From a virus, in IMG/VR virus record IMGVR_UViG_3300036790_000811, positions 1 to 64,000 of that record: 64,000 nt of DNA; one strand, written 5' to 3'. Shown one piece after another: positions 12,779 to 58,321 of this stretch. Position 1 is the first letter of the stretch. Every line of letters begins with the position of its first letter. Below the pieces are notes generated by a model. The model searched no databases. It was not told the origin of the DNA and saw nothing but the letters and a program-made list of their open reading frames with translations. The translations under genes were made by a program, and so were the position numbers.

Positions 12779-13645
12779 ATGTCTCGCGGACGTCATGCAG
12801 CTCCTTCGGCAACCCGGAAGGCCATATCTGCCGGGGTTTCCGTTACCACCACCACGCTCGCGGCCAGTGCGGTCGCGGCAATAGCGGTGGCAGGGGGTCA
12901 CGCTAGCGCAAGCACGACACAGGCGGCACCTGTCAATCCCGTCAAGGTACAGGCCGACGCTTACGTAGTCCACACGGTTAAAGTCCAGGCGGCCAGTCAC
13001 TACACCGTCAAATCCGGCGACACGCTCTCCGGGATAGCCCAGGCTAATCTCGGAAGTGCCGGCAAGTACGAGTGCCTGGCGGCAGCCAACGGCATTGAGA
13101 ACCCGAATCTCATCTACGTGGGACAGGATCTCGTCCTTGACTGCTCAACGGGCGAGATCAGCCAGCAGCCCGAGAATACTCCCGCAAGCGAGCCGCCATC
13201 CAGTGACTCGTCTACGGATTCGTCTACGGATGAGTCTGCCACGACTCACGATTCTTCCCAAGCGGTATCCACGTCCGGAGACGGGAGCTTCCAGTCCTGC
13301 GTTATTTCCCGCGAGTCGGGCGGTAACCCGGACATCTGGAACGCGAGTGGACATTATGGACTCTACCAATTTTCGGAGAGTACCTGGGAAGCCTACGGCG
13401 GTTCTGCCAGTGATTTCGGCCACGCTAGCGTGGCCGAGCAGAATCAAGTGTTCGAGAACGCTATGGCAACTCCCGGCGGAGAGGGAAATTGGGGTCCTTA
13501 CGATGGATGCTTATGCAATGTGTTAGAATCCTCGTATGGAACGTACGCCACCCCCAGAACCCGGGACCCGTTTCGGGCGCTGGACAGTTACCGGAGAGTC
13601 ATTCATGAGGGATCCGTCGCATCGAGCCATACCGGTTCGTTGTGA
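12779..13645 (+). CDS. secreted LysM + Rpf-type transglycosylase (domain ends at 13510, followed by TTA)
   Basis: GRH signal start; LysM YTVKSGDTLSGIA...NGIENPNLIYVGQ; Rpf-like CVISRESGG...YGLYQFSESTW...EQ...WGPYDGC. Confidence 0.85.
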   Translation: MSRGRHAAPSATRKAISAGVSVTTTTLAASAVAAIAVAGGHASASTTQAAPVNPVKVQADAYVVHTVKVQAASHYTVKSGDTLSGIAQANLGSAGKYECLAAANGIENPNLIYVGQDLVLDCSTGEISQQPENTPASEPPSSDSSTDSSTDESATTHDSSQAVSTSGDGSFQSCVISRESGGNPDIWNASGHYGLYQFSESTWEAYGGSASDFGHASVAEQNQVFENAMATPGGEGNWGPYDGCLCNVLESSYGTYATPRTRDPFRALDSYRRVIHEGSVASSHTGSL

Positions 13646-14060
13646 GTGCGGCGCGGAGGCCAGCGTATTGGTTTTCCAGCTCCGGAACGGCAGGTCCGTC
13701 AGTTGCGGTTGCCATAAGCGTGAGCAAGTAGCCACGCTAGTTGGAAGAACGCGCTGGAAAGACTCGCACGGGCGGAGTAAAGACCCCCTCTATCAGCTCT
13801 GGCTCAGGATCAAGAAACGATGTGATGATCCGAAGGCCCACAACTACCGCTGGTACGGTGCTCGCGGCATTAGCGTCTGGGATAGCTGGAGAAATGACGC
13901 AGGGGCGTTCATCTCCTACATCGAGAAGAACCTCGGTCCCCGCCCCGACGGATGCTCGCTGGACCGCATTAACAACGACGGCAACTACGAGCCGGGAAAC
14001 TTGCAGTGGGCTACCGCTGTTGAGCAGGCGCGTAACCGTCGTCCGAGGAGTGGCGATTGA
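13536..14060 (+). CDS. free-standing HNH homing endonuclease (HEG1)
   Basis: FGRWTV...CECG...SCGC...YGARGI...SLDRINNDGNYEPGNLQWAT..EQARN. Confidence 0.85.
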   Translation: MERTPPPEPGTRFGRWTVTGESFMRDPSHRAIPVRCECGAEASVLVFQLRNGRSVSCGCHKREQVATLVGRTRWKDSHGRSKDPLYQLWLRIKKRCDDPKAHNYRWYGARGISVWDSWRNDAGAFISYIEKNLGPRPDGCSLDRINNDGNYEPGNLQWATAVEQARNRRPRSGD

Positions 14061-14101
14061 CGATAGAGCGAACAGACAGGGCGCATAGCGCGCATTAGGC
14101 T

Positions 14102-14133
14102 TGAAGGGGCTTTCCTCCGGGAAGGCCCCTTCA
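14102..14133. terminator. stem-loop / terminator
   Basis: TGAAGGGGCTTTCC-TCCG-GGAAGGCCCCTTCA. Confidence 0.6.
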
Positions 14134-14153
14134 GTATGTAATGAGGTGGTTGT

Positions 14154-15920
14154 GTAGCCAACGATTTTCCGGTCGGCTGGGATCTCCCTGAGGGATTTGA
14201 GGACTTCCCGGCGGATGTTCAGCGGTACTTCATCGATGAGATGAACAAGCGGATGCCGAAGCCTCCCCGGCCGTGGCATTCGATGGCCCGTCCTAAGCAG
14301 CTTCCCCCGGATCATTCTCGGCATCACCTCGCTGACAAAAACGGCTACCGCTGCCAGTGGAAAGAAAAGGACGGCACCCCCCACGTCTGCACGGGAGATA
14401 AAGACTGGTTCATCTGGCTCTTTCTCGCCGGCCGCATGGTCGGAAAAACGATGACCGGCTCGAACTGGATCCTGGAGGAAGCCCTCAAGTACCCCGGAAC
14501 CCGGTGGGCGGTCGTGGCACCCACGTTCCAGCAGGTTCAGGAAGTCTGCTTTACCGGGGACTCGGGAATCATCGCGCAGGCGCTGCCCGGGGAGATCTCG
14601 GAGTACAACAAGAACGCGATGATGATCGTGCTCCAGAACGGCAGCGAGATCAAGGGGTTCTCGGCCGAGGCTCCGGAACGTATTCGTGGTTACAACTTGT
14701 CCGGCGCGTGGCTGGACGAGGTGGGCTCGTACCGGAATCGCGTCATCTGGGATGAGGCGCTCGGCCCGGCTCTCCGCAAAGGAAATCCCAGGGTTGTCGT
14801 CACGACCACCCCAAGTGGCAGCCCTCTCCTGAGGGAGTGGGTGGAGCGGTTCACCAATGCCGCAAAGAAGGGTGAGCCGTGCGACATCCACCTCACCCCT
14901 GCGCGCTTCAGTGAGAACGACACCATCCCGAAGAAGCAGCTCGAACGTCTTGAGGAGCAGTACGGCGGTACCCGTATCGGGCGCCAGGAACTCGAAGGCG
15001 AGATGCTGGAAGACTTCGAGGGAGCCCTCTGGAAGCGGAGCTTCATCGAGGACCACCGGGTAAACGAGTCGGATTACTTTGACAAGGCCGGCCGCATCAG
15101 GACCGAGCTGTTCGGCCGGATCGTGGTGGCAGTGGACCCGTCGATGACATCCGGCGAGACGTCGGACGAGTCCGGGATCGTCGTCGCGGGAGAAGGCGCC
15201 GACGGCGACGGCTACCTGATCGCTGACTGGAGCGTGCAGGGTACCCCCGAGGAGACCATGCGCCGAGCCGTGGCCGCCTACTACGAGTACCACGCTGACT
15301 GCGTGGTCATGGAGACCAACCAGGGCGGTGACTACCTGGTCAAGGCCCTGCGCGCCGCCGACCCGCATGTCCCTCCCCGGCTGGTTCACGCCTCCAAGGG
15401 GAAGATGATCCGTGCCCAGCCTATTTCCATGCTCGCCGAGCAGGGCAGGCTGCACCATATCGGGTTTTTCCCGAAACTAGAGGACCAGCTTTGTACCCTG
15501 GTTCCCGACGCGTCGCGGAATCAGCACGACGACCGGGCTGACGCGTTTGTCTGGGCGATGACCGAGCTGCGGGGAATTACCGACGGCTCCTACCTGGCCA
15601 CCTATGGCCACAAGTACTGCAAGTCCTGCGGTAAGACCATCCGGACGTCCGCCCGGCTGTGCCCCGGTTGCGGCAAGATGCAGGACAGCAGTGACGACCA
15701 GACCCCCACTGCCGGCAAGTGGGCCGGCGCCTACCTGAACCACTGCAAGAAATGCGGCGAGAATTACCCGCAGCGCTTCAAGAAGTGCCCCACTTGCAAC
15801 CCGACTCCGGAAACCTACATGGCCGCCGTCCAGAAGGCGTCGGGACAAGGGGGAGGCTGGCTATCCTATTCCGGGAGAGACTGGTTCAAGGGAGCAGGCC
15901 TGTTATCAGATGCGAGGTAG
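14154..15920 (+). CDS. terL: terminase large subunit with C-terminal Zn-ribbon extension (first ATG 14241; frame open from 14145)
   Basis: LAGRMVGKT, VVAPT, WLDE, VTTTP, GRQELEG, VAVDP, METNQGG, HDDRADA. Confidence 0.92.
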   Translation, partial: VANDFPVGWDLPEGFEDFPADVQRYFIDEMNKRMPKPPRPWHSMARPKQLPPDHSRHHLADKNGYRCQWKEKDGTPHVCTGDKDWFIWLFLAGRMVGKTMTGSNWILEEALKYPGTRWAVVAPTFQQVQEVCFTGDSGIIAQALPGEISEYNKNAMMIVLQNGSEIKGFSAEAPERIRGYNLSGAWLDEVGSYRNRVIWDEALGPALRKGNPRVVVTTTPSGSPLLREWVERFTNAAKKGEPCDIHLTPARFSENDTIPKKQLERLEEQYGGTRIGRQELEGEMLEDFEGALWKRSFIEDHRVNESDYFDKAGRIRTELFGRIVVAVDPSMTSGETSDESGIVVAGEGADGDGYLIADWSVQGTPEETMRRAVAAYYEYHADCVVMETNQGGDYLVKALRAADPHVPPRLVHASKGKMIRAQPISMLAEQGRLHHIGFFPKLEDQLCTLVPDASRNQHDDRADAFVWAMTELRGITDGSYLATYGHKYCKSCGKTIRTSARLCPGCGKMQDSSDDQTPTAGKWAGAYLNHCKKCGENYPQRFKKCPTCNPTPETYMAAVQKASGQGGGWLSYSGRDWFKGAGLLSDAR

Positions 15921-15923
15921 CGA

Positions 15924-16169
15924 ATGGCGCGACTGATCGTAGTTCCCGATAGCGGGGAAATGGACGCCGATACCAAGAGGATTCTCCGGGAGCAGCTGGA
16001 AGCCGGCGAAGGATGCCGATGGTGCGGCGGCCTCCATCAGCGGGAGTGCCCGCGCCTGAAGAAGGTCACCTACCATCCCACCGACGGGAGCCAGGTCCGG
16101 GACGTTGAATTCTGGTCCGATTCTGAGTGGGACAAGTCGAGCATCATCTTTCCTGAGGACCTGACGTGA
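15924..16169 (+). CDS. small Zn-binding protein
   Basis: CRWCGGLH...CPR. Confidence 0.65.
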   Translation: MARLIVVPDSGEMDADTKRILREQLEAGEGCRWCGGLHQRECPRLKKVTYHPTDGSQVRDVEFWSDSEWDKSSIIFPEDLT

Positions 16170-16339
16170 GCGAGAGTCCGTTGCCCGACCCGTTCGGGGT
16201 TGGTCCCGACCTCACCACGTTCGGCGTGAATGTGGTGGCGATGATCAGCGCCCTCATGGCGGCCGGGATGGAGAAGCCCGACGCCATGTGGTTCACCCTG
16301 GAGCTCATGACCCGGATGGCCAAGGGGAAGACCTCTTAA
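16166..16339 (+). CDS. small hypothetical protein
   Basis: Manual ORF MSESPLPDPFG...; GTGA overlap, GAGG SD. Confidence 0.5.
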   Translation: MSESPLPDPFGVGPDLTTFGVNVVAMISALMAAGMEKPDAMWFTLELMTRMAKGKTS

Positions 16340-16457
16340 ATCCGGAATGCTATAATCACAGCAGGTTCTGCTATGCCTGCGGATAGGACTGTGTGACGAT
16401 AACTTTTTCCACTGCCCTTAATGAGGGCATGGCCGCTCCTGACCGAACGGTCTCCCG

Positions 16458-18293
16458 GTGAAGTACGTCCCGTACTATCCGGGAGGCTGGGAAAACGGCA
16501 GCGGCGGAGATACTCCCATTATCGCCGCCGCCCTTGACGTCATGGAAGCGGGCATCGGCGCAGCGGCGCTGCCGACTACCGTGATGGTCACTACCGTCGG
16601 AGCCACATTCAGTCCCTGGGTGACGGCCAGCACAACGTCAATTACGCTTTTCTGGTCCAGTCCGGGGTTCAGTACCGTTACCGGAACGGCACCGACTCTT
16701 TCTTTCGGGTCAGCGGGTACTCGCGCTGTCTATATGACGGCGATTGACTCGAATGGCTATGATGCCATGAGTCAGGTTCAGATGTTCAATATCGGATTTC
16801 TCAATACTGATGACGAAGGTCAGTCATCTCTGCCGTCGTCGTACAACTGGACATCTCAAGAAGTTTCGGCCGTGGCGAACGTAAACTCCATGACTGGCCT
16901 CCAGGTCTTCTGTGCCGCCAATATTGCCACTCTTGGGGGAACACTCGATTGCTCGGGGATGGGTCAGCTTCAACATATTGAGTGTTACGCATCCCAGTTT
17001 CAGAATGTATACGTCTCAGGGTGTATTAGCATGATTCGGCTTTGTGTCGAGGAAAATAACCTGACGGTACTCAATATCAATCCGGTTCAGCCGAACCTGC
17101 TTGACCTGCGTGCCGCAGGTCAAGCAGGTGATGCCCTGACGCTTGTGCCACTTGCTATTGACGCGCTATCCGAGTGGCATTTTTGTATCCGGGACCAGGT
17201 GATTACGAACTGGCCCGACCTCGGAACGCAATTCCCGGTACTGGAAGAACTCTGGATATGGAATACCGGTTACAGCGGGGAGCTGGCTCCCGGATCGATA
17301 TTGCTGACCAACGTGCAAGCATACGATAATTCCGGGCTTACCTCAGCGGTATTTGCGGATGGCGCATTCTCAGATAACGACACGTATCTTGACTTGCACG
17401 ATTGCACGCTGGCTTCGATTACACTTCCGACGACTAATGGCCTGATCTATGTGGACCTATCCGGGAATGCCCTTGACACCGCTCAGGTTAATTCCGTTCT
17501 TGAGAACCTAGCGGGTAATAGCATCGCTGACGGCATAGTTAACCTCAGCGGTGGCACTAATGGTGTTCCGTCTGGCGGGGGAAGTACTGCCGTCACAACA
17601 CTGGAAGGGCGTGGGTGGACAGTAACCGTCAATTCCGGCGGGGGTGGCAATTTCACTCACGAGGACAGCGCGTTTAATTCCAGCACGTCAGCGACATCGC
17701 TGAGTATTACATTGAGCGGCGCCGTCAGCGCGGGTGACTTGTTGGTAATGGTGGTACAAACCGCTGGCGGCAGTACGAATGTCACCGTCACCGACACCGC
17801 CAGTAATGTATGGGCATCTTCTGATGGAGGCCAGACCTGGTACTGTCTGTCGTCGCTTGCCGCGCCGTCAGGCTTGACCGTGACCGCTGTCGTTACGGGT
17901 GATTATTATATTCACCAGGTACTTGCCGACCGGTTTGCTCATAATGGAACTGTCACTTACGGGGCGGGTGTCAGTACGGGAAGTTCTGGTACGCCGGGTC
18001 TTAACTACAACAACACGGGATGCGGTGACCTTGGCACTGTTGCGGCCGGGGTGCTGGCGTGGGGTGCATTCAGTAGTGATGACACGACCGGTAATCAGGA
18101 GTATACGGCCGGGTTCCAGAGCGGTTCCAGCGGAACCGCCGACGTGATTGGCTCCCAGTTTGCCGGGGCGGCGGGTACTGGCGTAAGCATGTACGTCCTC
18201 GACTGTGTGAACGCTGATGTGACACTAACGTGGTACGGCACGGGCGGCGCGGCATTCGGACATGCAGTCAGTGCTTATTTCCCGACGTCGTAA
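16458..18293 (+). CDS. leucine-rich-repeat, S/T/G-rich protein (probably virion-associated)
   Basis: LRR-like repeats (LEELWIWNT, YLDLHDCTL, YVDLSGNAL); lower GC than its neighbours. Confidence 0.65.
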   Translation: MKYVPYYPGGWENGSGGDTPIIAAALDVMEAGIGAAALPTTVMVTTVGATFSPWVTASTTSITLFWSSPGFSTVTGTAPTLSFGSAGTRAVYMTAIDSNGYDAMSQVQMFNIGFLNTDDEGQSSLPSSYNWTSQEVSAVANVNSMTGLQVFCAANIATLGGTLDCSGMGQLQHIECYASQFQNVYVSGCISMIRLCVEENNLTVLNINPVQPNLLDLRAAGQAGDALTLVPLAIDALSEWHFCIRDQVITNWPDLGTQFPVLEELWIWNTGYSGELAPGSILLTNVQAYDNSGLTSAVFADGAFSDNDTYLDLHDCTLASITLPTTNGLIYVDLSGNALDTAQVNSVLENLAGNSIADGIVNLSGGTNGVPSGGGSTAVTTLEGRGWTVTVNSGGGGNFTHEDSAFNSSTSATSLSITLSGAVSAGDLLVMVVQTAGGSTNVTVTDTASNVWASSDGGQTWYCLSSLAAPSGLTVTAVVTGDYYIHQVLADRFAHNGTVTYGAGVSTGSSGTPGLNYNNTGCGDLGTVAAGVLAWGAFSSDDTTGNQEYTAGFQSGSSGTADVIGSQFAGAAGTGVSMYVLDCVNADVTLTWYGTGGAAFGHAVSAYFPTS

Positions 18294-18319
18294 ACATCAG
18301 GATAGGTAACGGTGATGGC

Positions 18320-18802
18320 ATGACCACCCTCTATCCGGATACCACGACATATCCCGGTCCGGCTGTATACCCGGGAACTTCCGGTACCGTCGGCCTGGTA
18401 CTTGACTGGACAGTCGGCAGTCCAGGAACTAACTGGAATATTGGTACGGCGGGAACGGAGTGGAATGTGGCCTACAGTAGTGCGCAGATCACGAGCCTGA
18501 GTACGCAGTACGTATTTGTTCCCGTTCAGGTAACCAAGGCGGGAGCGGCCTATAATCCGACTGCCGACCCGGTGCAGTTCGCTTTTGCTCCTACCGTATT
18601 TTACGTTCCGCAGGATTCAGACTGGGTAGACGGGTCATGGCAGACGATCAGCACCTCCCTGATTTATCCTTACAATGCCCAGTGTCTTGTCGGTCCTTCC
18701 GGGGCAACGGTTCTCACGTCCGGGAATTACGTTATTTACGTGAAAGTTACCGATGATCCGGAAATTCCTGTGCTCACTGCCGGCTCCCTGGCTATTACCT
18801 GA
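18320..18802 (+). CDS. putative virion structural protein
   Basis: YNPTADPVQFAF...YVIYVKVTDDPEIPV. Confidence 0.6.
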   Translation: MTTLYPDTTTYPGPAVYPGTSGTVGLVLDWTVGSPGTNWNIGTAGTEWNVAYSSAQITSLSTQYVFVPVQVTKAGAAYNPTADPVQFAFAPTVFYVPQDSDWVDGSWQTISTSLIYPYNAQCLVGPSGATVLTSGNYVIYVKVTDDPEIPVLTAGSLAIT

Positions 18803-18866
18803 GAAATAACAGGGTGTTACGAAAGAAGCCTGACAATTCACGTAGCTTACGAAAAGGAGCGCCGGA

Positions 18867-21800
18867 ATGGCTGACAAGCGCCGGGTTGCCGCCGCACTGA
18901 AGTCAATTCCCGGGGCTCGCCCCACGATGGCTCCTCAGTCGTCGGGGTACGGTTCCGCGTCGCCTATCGCGGCGATGATGAACCAGCAGAACCAGTTCGC
19001 CAACTCCTATGGTCCTTTCCTGCCCCGGCCGAGCCAGGTGTTCACCGACGGCGCTTTCGGTCCCATGTCGCCCATTCAGCCGGTGCCGGTGGACAATCCC
19101 CCGCCGGGAGGGGAGTTCGCCGACCCCAGAAGCTGGGAATACCGGGTCGGCTGGAACCTTCCGACTCCTCCGGGGACTGAGGGTCTCAAGCTGGCAAGCT
19201 TCCAGCAGCTGAAGACCCTCAGTGAGAAGTACTGTTTGGCACCAGAAACCCGGGTACTCTGCTCGGACTTCACGTGGCGTCAGCTATCGGACATCAGCGT
19301 GGGTGATGAGCTCATCGCGTTTGACGAAGATCCCCCCGCTCGTGGACTGCACCGTAAGATGCGGTTTGCGACAGTGACGGCGTATGACCGGATTACACGT
19401 CCCTGCTACCGGGTGACACTGACAGACGGTCGTACGGTTGTCGCATCCGCCGAGCATCTATGGCTTGCCGGACGTGACAAGGCGGATGGTTCCTGCGCCT
19501 GCGAAATCTGCGGAAAGCAGTTCGGCCGCGCTCAGGGGCTGGGTGTGCACCGCAGGCAGGTTCACGATATCGAGGGTCAGTGGAAGCACAACAACTTCGG
19601 AGCATGGACGGTGACGGCGCAGCTGCGCCCGGGAAGCACTATCCGTGATCTCGGCTCCCCCTGGGAAGAGGATTTTTCCCGGGAAGCCGGCTATCTCTCT
19701 GGCGTTTACGACGGGGAAGCTTCTCTTAATATCGCGAACGGTAATCATAAAGGCTGGGGAATTGGATTCCCGCAGAATGCTGGTCCGGTTTTCGATGAAG
19801 TAGAAGCCATTCTCAAGCGCAAGGAATATGGTTTTCGGATTCACGGTCCAGGTATTAATGACTCCTGTAAGCATATTACGATCAGCGGGATGCGTGATTG
19901 TTTCCGCTTCATGGGAGAAATGCGCCCTCTTCGTCTTCTAGGAAATGCCAGGAAGTGGATAGAGGGAAATAGCCCTTCCCGTGCTGGATGTGCGACCGTG
20001 GAATCCGTAGAATTCCTGGGCGAGCGAGAGGTAATCGCTGCCGGCACGAGCACGAGCACGCTTATTGCGGAAGGGCTGTTTTCGCACAACAGCGTCGCCC
20101 GCGCCTGCATCGACCTGCGCCAGCAGGAGATCCGTGGTCTCGAATGGGAGATCACGATGACCAAGGAAGCGGCGAAGGCATACCAGAACTCGCACGCCAG
20201 GATGAAGGACTTCGGGGTCCGCGCGGCGGAGGCCACGAAGTTCTTCAAGCGTCCCGATCCGGATTATTGGACGTTCAGCTCGTTCATGAACGCGATGCTG
20301 GAAGAGATCTTCGTCTACGACGCCCTGAGTGTCATCTTCCGTCCCAAGTACGGTGCCAAGTTCGGGCGCGGCGGTCGCGGGCTCCTCGGCAGCGACCTGG
20401 ACTCGCTCCGTCTCATTTCGGGACCGACGATCCGTCCCCTGGTGGACCTGCACGGCAACATCCCCAAGGCTCCGGGGACTCCGGCCTACCAGCAGTACCT
20501 GTACGGCGTCCCCCGCTCGGACTACATGTCCATCCTTCGGGGTGACGACATTGCGGGAACCGTCCTGGCGGGGTCGGAATACAACGAGTTCACCGCCGAC
20601 TTGATGCTGTACGCCCCCTACTGGCCGCGCCGGGAGACCCCCTACGGCTTCCCGCCGATTGAGCGCGCCCTCTTGCCGGTGATCGCCGGGCTTCAGAAGC
20701 AGGAATACCAGCTTGACTTCTTCTCCGAGGGTTCGGTTCCGGCGGTCTATATCTCCCCGGGTGACCCCAATATCACCCCGACGCAGATCAAGGAGCTGCA
20801 AGACGCCCTGAACGGGATCGCAGGGGATCCGGCGTACCACATGAAGGTCGTCGTCCTCCCTCCTGGCTCTAAGGTCGAGCCGCAGAAGCCCGTGGATCTC
20901 GCGGACTCCTTCGACCTGCTCGTTCAGACTCAGGTGTGCATGGCATTCGATTGCCAGCCGGCAGAGCTGGGCATTCTGCCGAACGTGGGCAGCAACCAGG
21001 GCGGTGGCGGAGCCTCGGCCGGTGCCATCCGCCTCGGCATGCAAGAAGCCCGGGACATCAAGTCCCGCAAGTCCACGAAGCCGACCCTGCACTTCATCGC
21101 CAGCATCTTCAACTATATCCTTCAGGATGTCTGCGGCCAGAAGGACATGAAGTTCACCTTCGAGGGCCTCGCCGACGACGAGGACCAGCAGGCGATTACC
21201 GACCTCGGCGTCCAGCAGGTCCAGAACGGTATCGCGTCTATCGATGAGGTCCGGGACCGCCTTGATCTTCCCCCATGGGGCCTGTCCGAGACGTCGGAGC
21301 CGGTGGTCTTCACCGCCCAGGGGCCGATCCCGTTCTCCATGGCCCCGCAGCTCATCGCGAACATGCAGGGACAGAACGGAGGGTCGTCGTCATCCGGGAA
21401 CTCGAACAATGGTACCCAGTCCAGCAATTCCGGGCAGCGCACTTCCTCCTCGCGGACGAGGACGAATCAGCCCTCGGTGCGAGCCGGAGGGCAGACCAAG
21501 CCCAACGGCAGTCATCAGGCGCCGATCGCCCCGCATCGCGAGTCCCTGACGCCCGCACATAGTGCCGCCAGCGGGGCCGTGCAGAGCCCTACTCCCCGAA
21601 CTGGCGGCACCCCTTCGCGATCAAGTGTGGCCGGATCGAGGAAGAAGGCGGTGGAGGCTGAGTTCGGTGCCCTGAAGCGCCACCTCCGCAAGGGCCGGCT
21701 GATTACCACCTGGGAAACGCGGCACATTCCCGAGCGGTCCCTGTCCATGATTTCGGAGGACATCGCCAACGGCCTGCTGATTGACTCCGCCGTGGACCGG

Positions 21801-24014
21801 GCCACCGATTTCGTTCTGAAGGACGAAGAGGACATCTTTGAGCCGATCGTGGCCAAGGCACAGCAGTGGCCGGGCTGGGAGCGCGATCTCGGGCTCGTCG
21901 GTGCCTATAAGCAGCAGATTGAGGGAGCCTTTGCCGTTGCCCAGGCCAAGGGTGAGCAACTGCGCCACAAGGCGGCCAACGGGGGCATGTTCGTCTCCAG
22001 CTCTGCCCTGCGGGGACTCATTTCGGATGAGATGCATGACACTTTCCTGGGGGTTCTCCAGCCTCTGTGGAGCGAAGCGTGGCACCTCGGTTACGAGGCG
22101 GCCAAATCTCTGGTCACGGGCCAGGACGCGGACTTCGCCGTCAAGCACGAGAGCGGTGCGCTCGACGGGTTTATCGACACCCAGGGCGCTCACTGGGCGG
22201 AACAGATCGCCCGGACCGGCCTGAAGAACGAGAACGCCCGGACTGAGGCTATCGCCCGGACCGAAATAGCCCGCGCCGTGAACGCGGCGGCCATCCAGGC
22301 GTACCGGGACTACGGTGTCACCCACAAGCAGCTCATGCTTGCTCCTGATGACGCCTGCGACATCTGCAAGGATGCCGAGGATGAGGGTGTCATCCCGCTG
22401 GACGCGATCTTTCCTCAGGGAGGTCTTGGCGGTCCACTTCATGTTTCGTGCCGATGTGTCCCTGTCGCCGCCGGGATCGAGTTGGAGCCTCCGCAGGGAC
22501 ATCTCGGCAAGAGCCTTCTCGGGGATCTGGCTGCATCCGGTCCCTTTCCTTCCAGTGGGCCCGATCACCCCTACAGGCAGGACGGGCAGTCCGGAGCTGG
22601 CAACTGCGAGTGCGGTCATGCCGCAAGTGCACACGAAGATAAGTCCCGGCTTGCTTGGCTGCTGATGCGCGCCCGGGATGATGACGGCAAGTACCGCTTC
22701 CTGCTCCAGCAGCGGGACGACGGCACCTGGGGTATGCCCGGCGGCACGACTCACGTCGGGGAAGATCCGTGGGACGCCGCTATCCGCGAGTGTACGGAAG
22801 AAGTCGGGGACCTTCCGGGCATGACCGTGGCCGCCACGTTCCACCACGAGGAAGACAATGGCGCTCGCGCCTACGTCTGGATGGTGGACGTTCCCTATTT
22901 CCAGCCGAAGATGAACGGCTCGACTCCCGAGGAGACCCAGGGTGTCGCCTGGTTCCGGCGCAAGGAGATCGACAAGCTTAACCTGACCGGAAAGTTCCGC
23001 GAAGACTGGGAGCAGACGCCCGATATCCGGGAGTACGCCACCAAGAACCAGAACATGGTGAACGAATCCGGTGAGCGACTGGCGATCGTGGACTCCCAGG
23101 CACCGCTGCACGCTTCGGGAGCGCGGTGGCCCTACCCGAACCGGTCGCCGAACGGCTTTCCGATCGAGGACCCGCACTACAACCAGGCACCGGGCGAAAT
23201 GGGAGCCAGCGAGCCTCCCCGCAAGGACCTGGACAGCGATACCCCGACCCGGCTGTACCCCAGGGGTACCGAAGACGAGAAATTCCCGCCCAGGAGGGGA
23301 AAGGGCAAGCCCGCCAAGAAGTTCCCGGAGCAGGGCGACGAACAGTGGCCCGAGACCGAGAACGGCGGAGCGCAATCATCGTCCGCTCAGGTAGGGGGCA
23401 ATACGGGAGTCCCGAAAGCGGGTCCCGTGCCGGCGGTAGGGAGCGTCCCGGCGAAGACGCCGACTCCGATGGCGCCCCGGAGTGTTCCTCCGCAGGTTTA
23501 CGATCCCGCTGACGCGGTGGCGACGGAAGAAGACGGGGAAATCGCGTACTACCCCCAGCCGAAGCCGAAGAAGGGAAAGGGTGCCGCGAATTACACGGAC
23601 CCTTCTCCGGTGGACGCCGAGCACGTATACGTTCAGCTCGCCAGGAATTTCCCACCAAAAGCTATTGCCTGGGTTCAGCGAGCTCGATGGATCGGCCCCA
23701 TCTGGATTCCGTGGGATCGGATTGATACTGACGACCAGGATGAATGGGCCGCCTCCCACCAGCCTGAGCACGTGAAAGATTTCATGCGCCAGATCAAGGA
23801 TCATGACGGCCGGATCGTCCCGTCGGTCCTGGTTCAGGAGCCAGACGGCGGAAAGGCGTTCATCGTAGACGGTCATCACCGTGCTCTCGCCCGGGAAAAG
23901 CTGGAGCAGCCGGTGCTCGCTTATCTCGGGACGATTAACCCGGATGATCGGCAGGCGGCACTGGAAACCCATAGCGCCCAGGTTCATCACGGTGCCGACC
24001 ATGACAATAACTGA
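18867..24014 (+). CDS. portal protein fused to MuF, Nudix and ParB-like domains, intein-interrupted
   Basis: Portal region (PYGFPPIER, DEVRDRLDLPP); MuF IARTE...CDIC...PLHVSCRC; Nudix box GGTTHVGEDPWDAAIRECTEEVG; IVDGHHR. Confidence 0.88.
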   Translation: MADKRRVAAALKSIPGARPTMAPQSSGYGSASPIAAMMNQQNQFANSYGPFLPRPSQVFTDGAFGPMSPIQPVPVDNPPPGGEFADPRSWEYRVGWNLPTPPGTEGLKLASFQQLKTLSEKYCLAPETRVLCSDFTWRQLSDISVGDELIAFDEDPPARGLHRKMRFATVTAYDRITRPCYRVTLTDGRTVVASAEHLWLAGRDKADGSCACEICGKQFGRAQGLGVHRRQVHDIEGQWKHNNFGAWTVTAQLRPGSTIRDLGSPWEEDFSREAGYLSGVYDGEASLNIANGNHKGWGIGFPQNAGPVFDEVEAILKRKEYGFRIHGPGINDSCKHITISGMRDCFRFMGEMRPLRLLGNARKWIEGNSPSRAGCATVESVEFLGEREVIAAGTSTSTLIAEGLFSHNSVARACIDLRQQEIRGLEWEITMTKEAAKAYQNSHARMKDFGVRAAEATKFFKRPDPDYWTFSSFMNAMLEEIFVYDALSVIFRPKYGAKFGRGGRGLLGSDLDSLRLISGPTIRPLVDLHGNIPKAPGTPAYQQYLYGVPRSDYMSILRGDDIAGTVLAGSEYNEFTADLMLYAPYWPRRETPYGFPPIERALLPVIAGLQKQEYQLDFFSEGSVPAVYISPGDPNITPTQIKELQDALNGIAGDPAYHMKVVVLPPGSKVEPQKPVDLADSFDLLVQTQVCMAFDCQPAELGILPNVGSNQGGGGASAGAIRLGMQEARDIKSRKSTKPTLHFIASIFNYILQDVCGQKDMKFTFEGLADDEDQQAITDLGVQQVQNGIASIDEVRDRLDLPPWGLSETSEPVVFTAQGPIPFSMAPQLIANMQGQNGGSSSSGNSNNGTQSSNSGQRTSSSRTRTNQPSVRAGGQTKPNGSHQAPIAPHRESLTPAHSAASGAVQSPTPRTGGTPSRSSVAGSRKKAVEAEFGALKRHLRKGRLITTWETRHIPERSLSMISEDIANGLLIDSAVDRATDFVLKDEEDIFEPIVAKAQQWPGWERDLGLVGAYKQQIEGAFAVAQAKGEQLRHKAANGGMFVSSSALRGLISDEMHDTFLGVLQPLWSEAWHLGYEAAKSLVTGQDADFAVKHESGALDGFIDTQGAHWAEQIARTGLKNENARTEAIARTEIARAVNAAAIQAYRDYGVTHKQLMLAPDDACDICKDAEDEGVIPLDAIFPQGGLGGPLHVSCRCVPVAAGIELEPPQGHLGKSLLGDLAASGPFPSSGPDHPYRQDGQSGAGNCECGHAASAHEDKSRLAWLLMRARDDDGKYRFLLQQRDDGTWGMPGGTTHVGEDPWDAAIRECTEEVGDLPGMTVAATFHHEEDNGARAYVWMVDVPYFQPKMNGSTPEETQGVAWFRRKEIDKLNLTGKFREDWEQTPDIREYATKNQNMVNESGERLAIVDSQAPLHASGARWPYPNRSPNGFPIEDPHYNQAPGEMGASEPPRKDLDSDTPTRLYPRGTEDEKFPPRRGKGKPAKKFPEQGDEQWPETENGGAQSSSAQVGGNTGVPKAGPVPAVGSVPAKTPTPMAPRSVPPQVYDPADAVATEEDGEIAYYPQPKPKKGKGAANYTDPSPVDAEHVYVQLARNFPPKAIAWVQRARWIGPIWIPWDRIDTDDQDEWAASHQPEHVKDFMRQIKDHDGRIVPSVLVQEPDGGKAFIVDGHHRALAREKLEQPVLAYLGTINPDDRQAALETHSAQVHHGADHDNN
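19233..20090 (+). mobile_element. intein (286 aa) with LAGLIDADG-like motif
   Basis: KY|CLAPETRV...ASAEHLW...YLSGVYDGEAS...IAEGLFSHN|S. Confidence 0.9.
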
Positions 24015-24565
24015 GAAGCTCCTGCTTCCAGATAGTCCACCATGGCCTGCAGTCTTTTGATGTCATCTTTTACCCATCCAAGAATCAGGTTGCAGTCTTT
24101 ACAGAGAAGGCCTCGAATCTTTCCTGACTCATGGCAGTGGTCGATCGACATCCTGGCGGTCTTATTGCCGCATATGTCGCAACCATCTCCAGCTCGGCGC
24201 CGCGCCTCTACCTTGAGCCCGTCTGGGCCATAGATTCGGCGTACACGTGCGACTCGCTGGTTTTGGAGACTGCGTTCTTTGTTTGCGTGATGCCACTCCA
24301 GGGAGTTCTTGGACATGCATCGTTTACAGATGCGCTGTCGTTTGTCCCGGTAACGTATGTTTTTCCCGAATCCTTCAATCGGTTTTTCTTCGTCGCATCG
24401 AGTGCACGTTCGCTTGGTGTCGCCTAGCACCACGGGCGCCGGGGCTCTAGAGATGAACACGTCCCCATATGTCATGAATCTTCGATAGTGGAGTCGGCAG
24501 TAGCCCCTCGCGACGTGCGGCCGAACGCAGTCGGGGACATCGCATTTCCTTTCTTTTGGTGTCAT
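23987..24565 (-). CDS. endonuclease VII-like homing endonuclease (HEG2)
   Basis: CDIC...IDHCHESGKIRGLLCKDCNLILG. Confidence 0.85.
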   Translation of the reverse strand: MTPKERKCDVPDCVRPHVARGYCRLHYRRFMTYGDVFISRAPAPVVLGDTKRTCTRCDEEKPIEGFGKNIRYRDKRQRICKRCMSKNSLEWHHANKERSLQNQRVARVRRIYGPDGLKVEARRRAGDGCDICGNKTARMSIDHCHESGKIRGLLCKDCNLILGWVKDDIKRLQAMVDYLEAGASQLLSWSAP

Positions 24566-24602
24566 AAATTCAATCTTAGCAAAGAAGGTGAGGTGATGTA
24601 GG

Positions 24603-24925
24603 ATGGTCGAGAAGTCTGAGCAGACTCCGACGCTTAGCAGCGAGCATCACCCTCTCGGAAGGGAGGGCTTGTGGCGCACTCCAAGTAAGCGCGTTCCGGA
24701 GAAACAGCAGCTTCCGGCTTATTTAACATCCAGAACATCGCCCGCGCCCTCATGAGAGACCAGGGCATGGATGAATCGCAGGCCATCGCCACTGCCGTCA
24801 ATGCGGTGAAGCGCTGGGCGCAGGGCCATCTCGGGGAAGGCGGAGGCCAGGTGCACCCTGAAGTGGTAGCCGCCTCCCGTGCTGCGCTTGACGAATGGCG
24901 CAAGCTCCGGGAAGAACATCAGTGA
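24603..24925 (+). CDS. head-module protein interrupted by a frame break at TTA 24723 (recoded gene)
   Basis: MVEKSEQ...QQLPAY | TTAAC | IQNIARALMRDQGMDESQAIATAVNAVKRWAQG...; GAGGTG SD; ends in a GTGA overlap with the next gene. Confidence 0.7.
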
Positions 24926-25137
24926 AGCGCCACACTAAGCAGATCCGCAAGCGCCGGGAACGAGCCGAACGCGCGTTGATCGAACTCGCTCTCGCGCTTG
25001 ACAAATGTGATTCTCTCGGGGTAAAACTTGAACATGGAATAGCCGTGTCCAGATACGGTTATGTGATCCCGTTCAAGAAAGGCTGGGGCGTCCGCATGAT
25101 GGCGGAGTCCGGCCGCGACGAAGACTACTTCGACTAA
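24922..25137 (+). CDS. small basic hypothetical protein
   Basis: GTG start KRHTKQIRKRRE. Confidence 0.55.
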   Translation: MKRHTKQIRKRRERAERALIELALALDKCDSLGVKLEHGIAVSRYGYVIPFKKGWGVRMMAESGRDEDYFD

Positions 25138-25146
25138 TGACTTTCC

Positions 25147-25168
25147 AGCCCGCTTTGCGGGCTTTTTT
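25147..25168 (+). terminator. intrinsic terminator
   Basis: AGCCCGC-TTT-GCGGGCT followed by TTTTT. Confidence 0.7.
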
Positions 25169-25191
25169 GATGCCCGTACCCATGGAGGCGT

Positions 25192-43350: not shown

Positions 43351-43357
43351 GCCGCGA

Positions 43358-45000: not shown

Positions 45001-45590
45001 GAAGCCCGGAGGGATGCGAGCCTTCTTTTTGCTGTCTCTAGATTGTTTGCTATAAGTCGCAGACGGTCTGGATCCTCTCGCCCCTGCCCTATCAATAGGT
45101 TGCATGAAGGGCAGGCGAGGCCTCGCCTGCATAGTTCACATGAGTACCCGTAGCGGCAGCATGAGTGATCGTGATCCATTACAAATCCACGAGGATTTAC
45201 TGTATCCAGTACCTCGGCGCAGAGGTAGCATCTGCCGTTTTGTAGAGCCAGGAATTCAGCTACCAACTCATCCCAGTTACGACCATGCCTGTATGACATA
45301 CCGGAGCGTGGATTTTTCTCCCGAAACTCGCGAGACTTATTGACGTAATATTCTCGATGGCTAGATACATGCTGGCGTCTTTGGCATTTTTCACTACAGA
45401 AGCGACGCGAACTACGTTCGGCGGTAAAGGAAATGCCGCAACGTTCGCATACTTTTTCGAGGACATCAAAACCGCGCTGCCTTTTTCGTGCAGCTCGGTC
45501 TATACATTCCCTTGAACAAAATCGCTTATTCTTGTGCGCCGCCTTGACAGTCTTTCCGCACTCTTCACAGGTGATCATCGTTACCCGCAT
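44997..45590 (-). CDS. endonuclease VII-like homing endonuclease (HEG5)
   Basis: QNGRCYLC...MDHDHSCC...RRGLACPSCNLLIG; FCSREC-type repeats. Confidence 0.85.
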   Translation of the reverse strand: MRVTMITCEECGKTVKAAHKNKRFCSRECIDRAARKRQRGFDVLEKVCERCGISFTAERSSRRFCSEKCQRRQHVSSHREYYVNKSREFREKNPRSGMSYRHGRNWDELVAEFLALQNGRCYLCAEVLDTVNPRGFVMDHDHSCCRYGYSCELCRRGLACPSCNLLIGQGREDPDRLRLIANNLETAKRRLASLRAS

Positions 45591-45628
45591 AGTAGTCCAC
45601 CTTACGCGAAGGAAGGAGGTGAACCAGC

Positions 45629-51259: not shown

Positions 51260-51303
51260 TCGTACTTTCGCATCCTTGCGGAACAGCAGAAACGGACGAT
51301 GAC

Positions 51304-51815: not shown

Positions 51816-51825
51816 GGAATGACCC

Positions 51826-54800: not shown

Positions 54801-55347
54801 GTTCGGGGACCAGCCGGGACAGCTGCCGTTCGAGAACGACACCAGCTTCGCGGTAGACAACCAGTTCATCTTCAACGTGGTCAACGCGACCCAGCAGCGC
54901 GGTCCTAACCAGGACCTGTTCATCCAGGAAAACAATTTCCAGAGCCAGAACCAGTTCTTCATGCGCTCCGGGATCAGCTACCAGTCGTACGCGATGCTGC
55001 CGTTCGACGTCAGCGACCTGGTGAACTGGTCGGTCGCCAAGTACCAGGAACCCCACGACCGGGTGGTCCAGGTCACCATTGACGTGGCCGGGGTCCAGGC
55101 GTCCAACTCGGCATTGTTCCCGACCATTCTCTCACTGGAGCTGAATCAGACGATCACGGTGACGAGAACCCCGATCGGGGGCAGCCAGATATCCCTGACC
55201 GGGGTTATCCAGCAGATATCGCACGAATTCGGGGCCGCGAGCTGGAAGACCACCCTCGAAGTGACTCCTTTGATCCCGGAAGCCAATGCCCTGATCGCGG
55301 ATAATACAGGTAATGACACTCCGGGATCGAGCTTTTTGGCGTGGTAG
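51826..55347 (+). CDS. minor tail/baseplate protein with LamG-like domain
   Basis: WTDISQY...VKRGRQYEL; FAVEFWF; SEGG. Confidence 0.75.
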   Translation: MGFTAVGTIFDNGNGNSTFSVSPQAVGDILLVEIIVSGSSSITVTALLGGGVTTWTKIASYAGTSNAATGSVWMGTVTTTGSAVGIPTFSGGTSGDFLEMAGQEYSSTTGAMFAQAAYLDTSFTGNMPSLTPSGAGQMYFCFASDNGIASPGSTTGYVYQLDATGNGLAYNQNCTSGVSTHPVWTDGNLSFGIAVLISGSGSGSNTATGSLTITPQMNAQAAPGGSAQAALTVTPGFLAVASGGSGALSIAQIVPGNVINDYGLDNVPFTVNTPGTGTMLAAFIGWNAAASTAQSSGKAPAVNVTDSAGNLWRQAGITAVDPLARCALWVADNPRQTEWVSVALTGWGYSTAYTIVELDGVPSSLGQISLDFVSPVTTDTPVTTLTIPSQTASTSDLVLGVVTTGGPGGPLTVPTGWTGIQAVGGATSGDVTTYSVYRQSSAGAVTLAPSWANSVPASGVMAGIRITSAAPVQPNPNFPAIRVEAAFGATPGDWTQSVDYTYDIGGLAWTDISQYTTDEEGQSTISVKRGRQYELSQEETGTLEVQLDNHTGIFTYSNTASTFYPNVIPGTPLRVTAWFGGVQYPVGFGYAEKWPQEWPKMPQWGFSRVTATDAYGPLAACNLFSAVISEIRKDSPYAYFPTTEQYEFTTQSLDPVQAPLDANGLIAANYAFGNNRFGAYRDGYDQPVTVGQALNLMGDQNTTLGATTYTGQEVNDNGPGMFYFDNGIPTNASGKSFAVEFWFAWGNTSSFACTMLSAWASPSSFFTVATSTTPPSAGGVLTVGINTPAEGNTLEAGFFVNGTEISGGTFNQDTYAPQHFVLNVAGTNVTAYLNGVQQPNTPSVATIPMIRAFALGPARFSYDVSGMVVYNGYNYISGHAAWYSHALNPTVISNHYESGATGFVGDPAPGRFAQVLTWGGLGLKRGGTAWYNTYGNYEGTFMSEAYDYDGSSAADIMSQITQSEGGRCYIQANGSIVYAYRWSLYDQPVVAQFGDQPGQLPFENDTSFAVDNQFIFNVVNATQQRGPNQDLFIQENNFQSQNQFFMRSGISYQSYAMLPFDVSDLVNWSVAKYQEPHDRVVQVTIDVAGVQASNSALFPTILSLELNQTITVTRTPIGGSQISLTGVIQQISHEFGAASWKTTLEVTPLIPEANALIADNTGNDTPGSSFLAW

Positions 55348-56018
55348 CGCATCTTGGAGTAGTGCGGATAGCAGAGACCCTTGCCATAGTGCGCCTTTTC
55401 GCAACCCGGTTCCGTGCAACGGCGGGCGTTGGGATTGTTTTTCTGGTTGCGATTGTAGTGGTTCTTGCACAAACCCCTGGCGTACGCCGCTTTCTCGCAC
55501 TCAGGTTCTTCGCAGCGAGGAGAATCCGGGTTGGATAGTTTCTCTTCTATGTAATCCCGGTGCCGCTCTCGGCGACACTTTCGACATACTCGATCACCCT
55601 TTTGGCCTATATACGTATTGTCGCTTGTATATGGATGACCCCGAGGACATTCAATTATGTTCTTGCGGATTCCATGTTGAATGTCATCGAGAAGGTTCTC
55701 TTTGTAGGTTCCGTATGCAAGATTGGAAAGTCTGTTATCGGCAGGATTTCCGTTGAGATGCCGAGAAACGATGCTTTTAGGTTTAGGACCCACAAAGGCA
55801 TCCAGGACGATGCGGTGCACGAGTCTGACTATTCCCCTTCCGTTTCGGTGAAGGGTAACTCGGAGATGACCGCTCGGATTCGGAGTCGGCCTAAGATAGG
55901 GCCAGTCTGTACCGCGAGGACCCTTGCGGTAGACGAGACGTTTCACGCGTCCGTAGTCTGATACTGCATAAAACTCTTCATAGTCCACCACTGGAAGCCA
56001 GCGCTCCTGATCCGCCAT
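55146..56018 (-). CDS. NUMOD4-HNH homing endonuclease (HEG6)
   Basis: MADQERWLPVVDYEEFYAVSDYG...VHRIVLDAFVGP...RHLNGNPADN. Confidence 0.88.
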   Translation of the reverse strand: MADQERWLPVVDYEEFYAVSDYGRVKRLVYRKGPRGTDWPYLRPTPNPSGHLRVTLHRNGRGIVRLVHRIVLDAFVGPKPKSIVSRHLNGNPADNRLSNLAYGTYKENLLDDIQHGIRKNIIECPRGHPYTSDNTYIGQKGDRVCRKCRRERHRDYIEEKLSNPDSPRCEEPECEKAAYARGLCKNHYNRNQKNNPNARRCTEPGCEKAHYGKGLCYPHYSKMRYHAKKLDPGVSLPVLSAIRALASGIKGVTSRVVFQLAAPNSCDICWITPVRDIWLPPIGVLVTVIV

Positions 56019-56051
56019 GGACTGGAGTGTAACACAAGGAGGTGATGTTAG

Positions 56052-58321
56052 GTGCCAATCTCCCCTTCCAGCTATGCGACGAACACTCCCATAACTGCGC
56101 ACCAGCTTTTAACCAGGATTTTTACAGCATAGATGGCAGTGCATTCAATGCCACGGGAACAAGCTTTCACGCTAACCGCCCCCTGCTGGTAGAGACTTTC
56201 ATCAAGGCGGGAGCGCAGGCTACCGCCCCTACGGGGGGAGCACCCAGCTTCCTCGGCGGGGTGAACGGGGACGCCATCTCGGTGATCGACAACGCTGCCC
56301 TGTACGGGACCGGCGCGGACGGGGTCGGCAACGAGGCGAGATTCAACTCCGGCGGGGCTGTTGCTCCCGGCTCGGCGGGGATCTCGGGCCAGTACGGCGG
56401 CTGGAACCTCATGTTCGCGTTCGTCCCGATCTCCAAGTTCCCGGTCGCCGGGGGCATGTACGGCGTGGAGTGGAACGACTCCGCCATCACCGGCAATCCT
56501 CCGGCTGACATCGGCTGCATGCAGCCCGCCAGCACGGTCTACAACAACGCCGGCTTCGCCTGCGACATGGTCGAGCTCGTCCCCCCGCTCTACAGCGCGG
56601 ACTGGGGTCCGTCGGTCTACGCACTGAGCCCGACCGCTACCAGGATCCCGCTGGTGGTCAACACCGTCACGACGGTAGGCCAGACCCCGCGCTTCACCCA
56701 GATCTGGACCGGCGTCCTGAACGGCTACGGCACGCCGGTAAGCACGGTGCCGTCCCCGATGACGGTGATCACCGGGCTGACGACACTCAGCAGCTCGGCA
56801 CTGAACGCCACGATCAACCAGAGCCTGAACCTGCTCAACTACCCCCCGATGCTGGACGTGACGGTCCAGTCCACGGCGCCGATCAACGCCAGCTCCGTGA
56901 CGACCGTGCCGTTCAGCAACACCCCGGTTGAAGACAACTACAGCGGCTACAACGTCTCTGCCCGCACCTACACGGTGCCGTTGTCCGGACTGTACTTCAT
57001 GCACGCGAACCTGATCTACAGCCCGGCCTTTACCGTGGGAACGGCGATCGCCGGGTTCGACGTCAACGGGGCCATCCGGTGGGGAGGGGCCTACGCGGCG
57101 ACCCCGAGTGCCAACCAGAACACCGGGGCCTCGGTCACCAAGCTGTTCGACCTGAACGCCGGGGACACTGTCCAGGTCATCACCGCCACCAGCGTGGCGG
57201 CAGCCTTCGGCAGCGCGAACTACAGCCACTTCATCATGAACTGGATGGGCGCGCTCAACAGCAGCACCCAGCACTGGAAGCCGCCGAACGTCACGGGCTT
57301 CCAGTTCACCGCCGGGATGCCCCCCGAGTCGGTCACGAACATCGTCCAGAACTCCTACTTCACGGCCGGGACGAGCAAGTGGAGCGGCTTCAACGGGTCG
57401 TTCACCGTGACCTCAAGCCCGGCCGCCGGGGCACCGTATCCCAATGCCGGCGTCTACGTGAACAACGGGTCGGCGTCCGGGGCGATGGAAGGCGGGGGGA
57501 CATTCCAGGTCGATCCCACCGAAGTGGTCTACCTGGACGCGTGGACCTGGACCTCGGGAACGGTAATCCAGGCCGGGTTCGACTTCCTGAACAGCGGGAC
57601 CTACGTCACGTCGGTGCTGTCCAACTTCACCGTGCCGACCCAGACGTGGAAGCTGGTCAGCCTGCCCGTTACCGCCCCCTCGTCGGCCATCAACAGCGCC
57701 TACGCCCGGGTGGGAACCCCGTCCGGGAGCGGTGCCACGATCCAGACGCAGGCGATCCTGGCAGGCTTCCAGAGACCTCTCGCGCCCCAGCTGAACGAGA
57801 AGATCGCCAACGACCTCAACTTCCTCATCAACCGCCCGTACCTGATGGCCCGCCAGACGACGGCAACCTCAGGGACGGTGAATACCGCCATCACGGTGCC
57901 GATGCAGACCGCGACGGGACTGATCCACAGCACCTTCGGGGACAACTACGGCGGCTGGAACGGCACCGCCTACACCGCCCAGGTTCCGGGCTGGTACCTG
58001 GCGGTCGAGGAAATCGGCGCGGCCACCCGCTCGACGGCGAATTCCGGCGACAGCCTGACGGCGGGCTTCTCGGTCCCCACTAGCGGCGGGGTAAACGCTC
58101 CCACGACCCCCCAGGCGATGCCGGACTGGTACCAGCAGATCCAGGTGGCCGGGAGCTGGACTTATCCCACGGCGGCGACGGCGATCGGCGCCTACTACCT
58201 CAACACCGGGGAATCCATCTCCCCCAGTGCGCGGTACCAGTCGGGCACGGCGACCAGCTGGACGACGGACACCTCGCACAGCTTCAATGGGCAGTTCAGC
58301 CTCATCTATTTGAGTTCGTAG
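56052..58321 (+). CDS. minor tail protein with a frame break at TTA 56109 (recoded gene)
   Basis: SD AGGAGG 9 nt before GTG 56052; MPISPSSYATNTPITAHQL | TT | NQDFYSIDG; C1q/CBM-like beta domains. Confidence 0.7.

Follow-up and report, generated by a model that had tools for sequence, protein, structure and literature searches.

How does a phage make use of a codon that it keeps out of the bodies of its genes, and what becomes of a ribosome that meets it? The question is raised by a 64,000-nucleotide (nt) stretch of DNA, positions 1-64,000 of IMG/VR record IMGVR_UViG_3300036790_000811 (G000/G0 in our numbering; 76.5 kb, 61.8% GC), hereafter the window, in which the leucine codon TTA (UUA in the mRNA) is confined to the apparent ends of genes and to places where a conserved gene changes frame. 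A sequence-only reading of the window had proposed that UUA causes hopping in mid-gene and serves as a de facto stop where genes end, and further that virion assembly might thereby be tied to scarcity of tRNA-Leu(UAA). The first two points, its core claim, fared well in the comparison with relatives: homologues that carry a canonical stop at the position of the TTA, homologues that run uninterrupted through the breaks, and a break that is conserved between phages together support the view that UUA is not read here as an ordinary leucine codon. The explanation that we regard as probable is that UUA cannot be decoded, most likely for want of the cognate tRNA-Leu(UAA), in the manner of the bldA tRNA of Streptomyces, and that ribosomes would pause at the codon and then either end translation or hop.

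To establish the distribution of TTA, genes were called with a custom codon-model caller in which the TTA score was set to zero, because circularity had to be avoided. In the window TTA was found in frame 5 times in 17,647 called codons, against 212 times out of frame (130 and 82 in the two other phases), and other rare codons were used normally in the same calls (CTA 48, ATA 49 and AGA 40 times). The in-frame occurrences lie at 13511 and 13523 (amino acids [aa] 245 and 249 of 288), 15903 (aa 555 of 559), 40701 (aa 172 of 195) and 56048, the last being in frame only with a mis-called start (the true start is the GTG at 56052, in a different frame). None lies in a gene body. The AT-richer gene at 16458-18293 (GC content of third codon positions [GC3], 0.59) has no internal TTA, and the five minus-strand homing-endonuclease genes contain three TTA codons in all, 24008c (aa 186 of 192), 55311c (aa 236 of 290) and 55302c (aa 239 of 290). 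Two syntenic relatives with ~65-70% DNA identity, G1 (48 kb, 51% GC) and G2 (59 kb, 60% GC), also have no TTA in gene bodies: the codon occurs 4 times in 14,510 codons of G1, despite a GC3 of 0.52 and 326 TTG codons, and 5 times in 17,401 codons of G2, always within 8 codons of the called start or 43 codons of the end of the open reading frame (ORF). With the capsid-like protein encoded at 28009-29871 we retrieved 77 related IMG/VR loci (hereafter the clade), in whose ~400,000 codons TTA stands at 0.2 per 1000; 12 GC-rich loci, on which the caller had converged on the wrong strand, were excluded from the counts. Unrelated phages with a GC3 of 0.5-0.65, taken from the same search as a control, contained 2.5-8 TTA per 1000 codons, spread along their genes. 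Every TTA that the sequence-only reading had placed is present, and its claim that gene bodies are free of the codon, the minus-strand endonuclease genes and 16458-18293 included, was borne out by the count over the whole window, which contains no ordinary mid-gene TTA.

High-GC actinomycetes and their phages all use TTA rarely (PMC10732093), and one account of these counts would be that TTA is merely the rarest leucine codon, its terminal occurrences being neutral stop losses that are read through and the frame breaks being inactivating mutations in dispensable genes. Against this, a stall at codon 555 of 559 would be as costly as one in mid-gene, yet gene bodies are free of TTA even at a GC3 of 0.52. 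The gene ends themselves bear on the same account, and the genes in question are the following.

12779-13510, plus strand: LysM and Rpf-like transglycosylase gene (Pfam LysM, Transglycosylase-like), up to the codon preceding TTA
13511-13513, plus strand: terminal TTA of the Rpf-like gene; second in-frame TTA at 13523-13525, standard-code stop at 13643-13645
13536-14060, plus strand: HNH endonuclease gene, ATG at 13536 (phrog_374, E 1e-44, aligned from residue 10)
14241-15902, plus strand: large terminase gene with C-terminal double zinc ribbon (Pfam Terminase_6N, Terminase_6C)
15903-15905, plus strand: terminal TTA of the terminase gene; standard-code stop TAG 5 codons downstream
40188-40700, plus strand: conserved 171-aa late-operon protein (65% identity to its homologue in G1, 64% in G2)
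40701-40703, plus strand: terminal TTA of the 171-aa protein gene; standard-code stop 24 codons downstream
23987-24565, minus strand: homing-endonuclease gene HEG2, Endonuclease VII type (Pfam); in-frame TTA at 24008-24010, 7 codons before TGA
55146-56018, minus strand: homing-endonuclease gene HEG6, HNH_3 and NUMOD4; in-frame TTA at 55311-55313 and 55302-55304, 55-codon standard-code tail antisense to the end of the minor tail gene

Aligned with their homologues, the Rpf-like protein, the terminase and the 171-aa protein end where the sequence-only reading had them end, with canonical stops at 13511, 15903 and 40701 in 2, 10 and 27 homologues, respectively. The Rpf-like protein reads ...PYDGC-TTA in the window and ...PYDGC-TGA in relatives G7 and G3, TTA 13511 falling exactly on the stop of both, and its standard-code tail would overlap the HNH endonuclease gene by 110 nt. 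The terminase ends ...DWFKGAGL-TTA, and 10 of its 11 homologues stop at W+7, counted from a conserved tryptophan, which is the position of TTA 15903. For the 171-aa protein, WEIMQA-TTA in the window faces WEIINA-TAA in G1 and WEIMNA-TAA in G2, after which come the ribosome-binding site and start of the following gene, and in 27 clade homologues the protein ends at precisely this codon; it has no Pfam, NCBIfam or PHROG match, and the name of tail terminator given to it earlier is without family support either way. A reciprocal case is offered by the minor tail gene of G2, whose TTA (G2 50274) lies exactly opposite the window's TAG at 55345. For HEG2 and HEG6 the earlier proposal stood only in part: their TTA codons are placed as described, a few residues past the last domain, and homologues do not establish an end at these codons; the one close homologue of HEG2 (66% identity, in locus L084) continues 38 residues past TTA 24008c. 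That HEG6 ends at its TTA is plausible.

Tallied over the whole clade, the codon opposite a homologue's stop was TTA 6 times against ~0.2 expected (Poisson P ~6e-8), and CTA, AGA and ATA were found there 1, 1 and 0 times, though each is 5-8 times commoner in genes than TTA. At two of the six tallied sites (L089 17748 and L077 6305) TTA is the sole separator of adjacent genes, with no canonical stop, and read-through would produce a fusion protein. Read-through of a merely rare codon would in this way fuse genes in L089 and L077 and overlap real genes, and would leave the excess of TTA over far commoner codons at homologues' stops without a cause. What fits read-through is that a canonical in-frame stop lies 5-55 codons downstream of every terminal TTA of the window, and that C-terminal length also varies among relatives that have no TTA; since it does, not every C-terminal extension involves the codon.

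The same distribution is that of a stop codon mis-read as sense, and the gene boundaries at which TTA is the sole separator would be expected if UUA were a true fourth stop, read by an altered class I release factor, with the coding gaps described below being stop-stimulated hops like that in T4 gene 60, where UAG comes next after the take-off codon. The base that follows is consistent with this as well: after terminal TTA in the window and its relatives it is a pyrimidine in 13 of 13 cases (9 of them T), against a pyrimidine fraction of ~0.5 after canonical stops. There are also organellar precedents, in which UUA termination is tied to mutations of release factor 2 (RF2) or release factor 1 (RF1) (PMC12574857).

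Two genes of the window are interrupted by gaps that open with TTA as the next old-frame codon.

24603-24722, plus strand: first part of a small conserved head-module protein, 40 codons ending ...QQLPAY (67% identity to the uninterrupted gene of G1, 54% to that of G2)
24723-24727, plus strand: site a, 5-nt coding gap TTAAC; TTA is the next old-frame codon, old-frame stop at 24753, 10 codons on
24728-24925, plus strand: second part of the head-module protein, IQNIARALMRDQ...EEHQ and stop, in a different frame, with no start codon in frame 5' of the junction
56052-56108, plus strand: first 19 codons of a minor-tail-like protein, VPISPSSYATNTPITAHQL, GTG start and last codon CTT (68% identity to the start of the uninterrupted G1 gene)
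56109-56110, plus strand: site b, 2-nt coding gap CTT/TT/AAC; TTA 56109-56111 is the next old-frame codon, old-frame stop at 56130, 7 codons on
56111-58321, plus strand: remainder of the minor-tail-like protein, NQDFYS... (AAC CAG GAT...), in the frame past site b

At site a the proteins of G1 and G2 (~100 residues) are encoded in one frame, as LPAY-V-QNI and LPAY-L-QNV, the window having 5 additional bases, and 15 clade homologues bridge the junction. A TTA at 24719 is in the downstream frame, yet it lies upstream of the junction. At site b the gene of G1 is likewise in one frame, ...ITAHQLNQDLYTYDG (HQLNQDLY), and the window has 2 additional bases; G2 has a 4-nt break of its own (TAT/TTAA/GAC) in the same minor-tail-like gene, nine codons past site b. 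Both frame discontinuities noticed from the sequence alone, at 24723 and 56109, are real, the genes being uninterrupted in homologues and break a being conserved in L084.

Junctions of any kind between frames were searched for in the clade with tblastn of 933 clade proteins against all loci, which returned two kinds of event only: gene fusions or fissions with a stop and a start, and breaks led by TTA. The scan recovered the break of G2, found site a again in L084 (TAC/TTAAC/ATC, with diverged flanks, from another sample) and revealed a further break, site c (GAT/TTAG/GAC or GGC), in L069, L074, L084 and L127, close to where the homologue of 38640-39644 begins; at the level of scan output it also flagged the region of the site c gene in G2, L070, L089 and L101, where TTA lies within or next to the junction. 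In every break the old frame meets a stop at most 10 codons after the TTA, and the base that follows the TTA is A or G in all cases, so that a TAA or TAG overlaps the codon in the +1 frame. Alignment lengths across the breaks favor a TTA that is not decoded at all. Every true frame break detected in the clade begins at TTA, and the same break persists in diverged phages inside structural genes that every relative has kept, which is hard to reconcile with inactivating mutations in dispensable genes; together with the gene ends, this makes the account of TTA as merely the rarest leucine codon very unlikely.

The window is a metagenome assembly and was inspected as contigs, and assembly or sequencing errors might in principle have produced both the breaks and the odd stops. 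In run X1, a soil metagenome with an independent Logan assembly, positions 13001-27000 lie inside a 127.7-kb contig (depth 44) with 0 differences and no indels; X1 is possibly the window's own source sample, so that in this comparison of contigs the reads are probably the same ones and do not count as independent. In another soil metagenome a ~95%-identical strain retains TTA 15903 although bases around it vary, and run X2 gives no cover over 23742-24675. The TTAAC insert of site a stands in L084, from another sample, and errors would not always yield TTA. We regard error as extremely improbable; the earlier concern over assembly was answered for site a, at contig level, by its identity in the Logan contig and its recurrence in L084.

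Whether UUA can be decoded depends on the tRNAs at hand. No tRNA gene was found within the window. Beyond it, the record carries tRNA genes for Arg-TCT, Met-CAT and Thr-CGT and two tRNA-like genes with abnormal anticodon loops, none of which reads UUA.

69164-69237c, 70087-70160c, 73646-73717c, 74873-74962c and 75103-75173c, minus strand: tRNA genes of the record (G000), beyond the window

The complete relative G3 encodes 42 tRNAs, among them several for other rare codons that end in A (Ile-TAT, Arg-TCT, Lys-TTT and others) as well as Leu-CAA, Leu-GAG and Leu-CAG, and no Leu-TAA, and G7 (71% complete) encodes 35, likewise with no Leu-TAA. In the 11.5-Mb draft genome of an Actinoallomurus, a candidate host genus whose draft contains a capsid relative, a pattern built on the anticodon loop and T loop found no tRNA-Leu(UAA), though a draft cannot prove absence; the CAA version of the pattern finds tRNA-Leu(CAA) in the same draft.

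Release factors bear on a fourth stop. No codon-reading release factor (PCRF domain) was found in 25 clade genomes (14 of them ≥90% complete), and 4 of the 25 encode only a stand-alone GGQ (RF-1 domain) protein of ~135 aa that has no codon-reading domain.

L144 1453-1860 (G003:C1 about 39253-39660): GGQ-domain protein, also present in L145, L146 and L147; in G3 (G003) it lies inside the array of 42 tRNA genes

This protein may release chains from, or rescue, paused ribosomes; complete relatives with terminal TTA but without it exist. As for the host, Streptomyces-type hosts have and use tRNA-Leu(UAA) (PMC4255298), which makes a UUA-reading host release factor unlikely in them. A true fourth stop is therefore unlikely in our view, and a UUA-reading release factor remains the main rival to an undecodable or barely decodable UUA, which is the best-supported cause.

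If UUA is undecodable, its arrival in the A site would make the ribosome pause, and the sequence context would decide the outcome. At the three gene ends (Rpf-like lysin, terminase and 171-aa protein), and possibly in the two endonuclease genes, no re-pairing would follow and translation would end. At the two sites near the starts of divergent endonuclease genes, the peptidyl-tRNA would re-pair a few bases downstream and translation would resume in the new frame, the re-pairings CUU to UUU (+2) and UAU to AAC (+5) restoring the conserved proteins. The pause, the hop, the release of the chain and the scarcity of the tRNA in the host are all steps that we infer from sequence, as are the re-pairings listed here.

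Site b (window): old P-site CUU, putative new pairing UUU, shift +2
Site a (window and L084): old P-site UAU or UAC, putative new pairing AAC, shift +5
The own break of G2: old P-site UAU, putative new pairing UAA, shift +4
Site c (four relatives): old P-site GAU, putative new pairing GAC or GGC, shift +7

Site c appears a good fit to re-pairing, and at site b re-pairing of CUU with UUU through G-U pairs is plausible. Other ways of crossing the gaps were rejected: quadruplet decoding of TTAA or TTAG, since four-base codons leave 2-nt and 5-nt gaps unexplained, and transcriptional slippage, the T runs being only 3-4 long. Rfam at gathering thresholds gave no match over the whole window, which therefore contains no introns or known recoding RNAs.

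Several results weigh against an undecodable UUA. Take-off and landing codons at site a (UAU and AAC) match at 2 of 3 bases; the RNA around sites a and b and the L084 gap (111 nt each) folds no better than shuffled sequence (z-scores, +0.2, -0.2 and 0.0); and no Shine-Dalgarno-like element (GGAGG-like) lies upstream of sites a and b. A tRNA-Leu(UAA) gene is present in a Streptomyces genome that contains a distant capsid relative, and because it is encoded there, UUA may be conditionally readable in a Streptomyces-type host. Only ~5% of the window's genes end in TTA, a share that also counts against a fourth stop, and a simple stalling model does not predict the pyrimidine after terminal TTA. 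A pause at a sense codon does not by itself explain how the finished protein would leave the ribosome, and rescue by tmRNA would tag that protein for degradation. Finally, the case is built on sequence. A more elaborate reading, which we put forward tentatively and consider possible rather than likely, divides the codon by its context: UUA followed by a pyrimidine would be an actively read, selected fourth stop signal and no passive stall, acting through a host release-factor variant or a codon-independent GGQ factor like that of some relatives, and UUA followed by a purine a hop signal by which homing endonucleases could place protective coding gaps, the whole amounting to a conditional variant code of a clade of soil actinophages.

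The position of the gaps beside homing endonucleases calls for comment. Six free-standing homing-endonuclease genes, of Endonuclease VII or HNH type, are scattered through the late operon. Five run antisense to it (23987-24565, 42143-42721, 44997-45590, 55146-56018 and 58302-58880, minus strand) and one in the operon's own direction (13536-14060, plus strand); another HNH gene is found where the record ends (76124-76489c). The endonuclease start is 158 nt away in the case of gap a (HEG2) and 91 nt away in that of gap b (HEG6). L084 has the 66% HEG2 homologue beside the same TTAAC gap, and G1 and G2 have neither at site a. The other three minus-strand endonuclease genes have no adjoining gap; a third gap, suspected upstream of the tail-assembly-chaperone-like gene beside the endonuclease gene 42143-42721, was ruled out, that gene starting at ATG 42761 and being uninterrupted. 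By analogy with T4, the arrangement fits the logic of mobA and gene 60, in which the insert that makes the gap would spoil the nuclease's own target. This suggests a way in which homing endonucleases could disrupt their own targets within essential genes and leave the phage viable.

The source of the window was examined through its relatives. The Rpf-like lysin and the capsid-like relatives found inside actinomycete genomes point to an actinomycete host for this uncultured soil phage. Such capsid-like relatives occur in Actinoallomurus vinaceus (51% identity), a Streptomyces sp. (46%), Arthrobacter terricola (39%) and metagenome-assembled genomes of Actinomycetota; a capsid profile scan of GTDB genomes matched only distant relatives, and a terminase profile scan of GTDB genomes gave no match. 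In loci L169 (A. vinaceus JCM 17939) and L170 (Streptomyces sp. NPDC093261) the capsid-like relative sits in large contigs of cultured actinomycetes. By megablast and tblastn there is no close cultured phage, the terminase being <40% and the capsid-like protein <28% identical to any. Because the X1 contig measures 127.7 kb and complete relatives, which carry direct terminal repeats, span 95-130 kb, the record, classed in IMG/VR as a provirus, is probably a fragment of a ~128-kb phage genome and not an integrated prophage; Pfam searches of the genes at both ends of the record found no host genes or integrase. Three features of the late genes were observed in passing. A single ORF of 1715 aa at 18867-24014 combines portal, MuF-like and NUDIX domains. 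The terminase of G2 (L003 8160-10376; G2 8061-10388) has 775 aa against 559, owing to an in-frame insertion of ~765 nt that is possibly intein-like. Just 5' of the stop of the tail-assembly-chaperone-like gene 42761-43108, CCA AAA AAG at 43094-43102, conserved in G1 and G2, looks like a -1 frameshift site of the lambda G/GT type.

For annotation, the practical consequence is that standard-code gene callers will misplace C-termini, report false overlaps, fuse genes and create apparent pseudogenes, both here and across the ~77 soil phage contigs of the clade. In the literature searched, a sense codon in the role of a stop was in print for mitochondria and plastids alone, and we found no report of UUA as a stop in phages or bacteria; it is published for organelles only, namely labyrinthulean (Thraustochytrium) mitochondria (NCBI table 23), peDinoflagellate plastids and Marsupiomonadales mitochondria (PMC12574857). 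The likeness is close in that UUA is absent from gene bodies, stands at the positions of homologues' stops and has no cognate tRNA in the genome (here, in the tRNA sets of relatives). In the organelles, though, a third to half of genes end in UUA and RF2 or RF1 is mutated, whereas in the window the share is far smaller and no altered release factor is known, and Streptomyces-type hosts read UUA as leucine at some stages.

Programmed changes of frame offer two further comparisons. The bacterial prfB gene, which encodes RF2, is translated through a +1 frameshift at CUU UGA C, and site b, CUU UUA AC, resembles it in combining a slippery CUU-U with a slow A-site codon; it differs in needing +2 rather than +1, in having no upstream Shine-Dalgarno element and in that its slow codon is a sense codon. 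In T4 gene 60 and mobA (bioRxiv 10.1101/2022.08.31.505936), as here, a skipped coding gap lies beside a free-standing endonuclease gene and gap and endonuclease are inherited together (the window and L084 have both, G1 and G2 neither). The T4 skip covers 50 nt and relies on matched GGA codons, UAG, a stem-loop and a nascent-peptide signal, in contrast to gaps of 2-5 nt at which UUA is the slow codon and for which no such signals were found.

The nearest relation is the large terminase of Streptomyces phage phiHau3, in which, as in two prophages, 10-nt gaps led by UUA have been described (Smith et al. 2013, cited in PMC10732093; Atkins and co-workers 2023, PMC10732093); the sequence-only reading had pointed correctly to this case of UUA-linked bypassing. 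In the literature searched, UUA-triggered hopping is in print only for a few such terminase genes of Streptomyces phages and prophages. The gaps of the window measure 2 and 5 nt instead of 10, interrupt head-module and minor-tail-like proteins instead of the terminase, lie 91-158 nt from the starts of divergent endonuclease genes and have neither of the stimulators proposed for phiHau3, a 5' stem-loop and an internal Shine-Dalgarno element, that we could find. What the two systems share is an essential phage gene, continuous in relatives, whose frame is disrupted by a short insert led by UUA, with an old-frame stop soon after; the trigger proposed for phiHau3 is again the lack of functional tRNA-Leu(UAA). 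This phage in addition uses TTA in place of stops, which has not been described for phiHau3 (PMC10732093), and because stop and hop co-occur here in one genome with a clear comparative signal, the sequences suggest a single cause, an undecodable UUA, for both.

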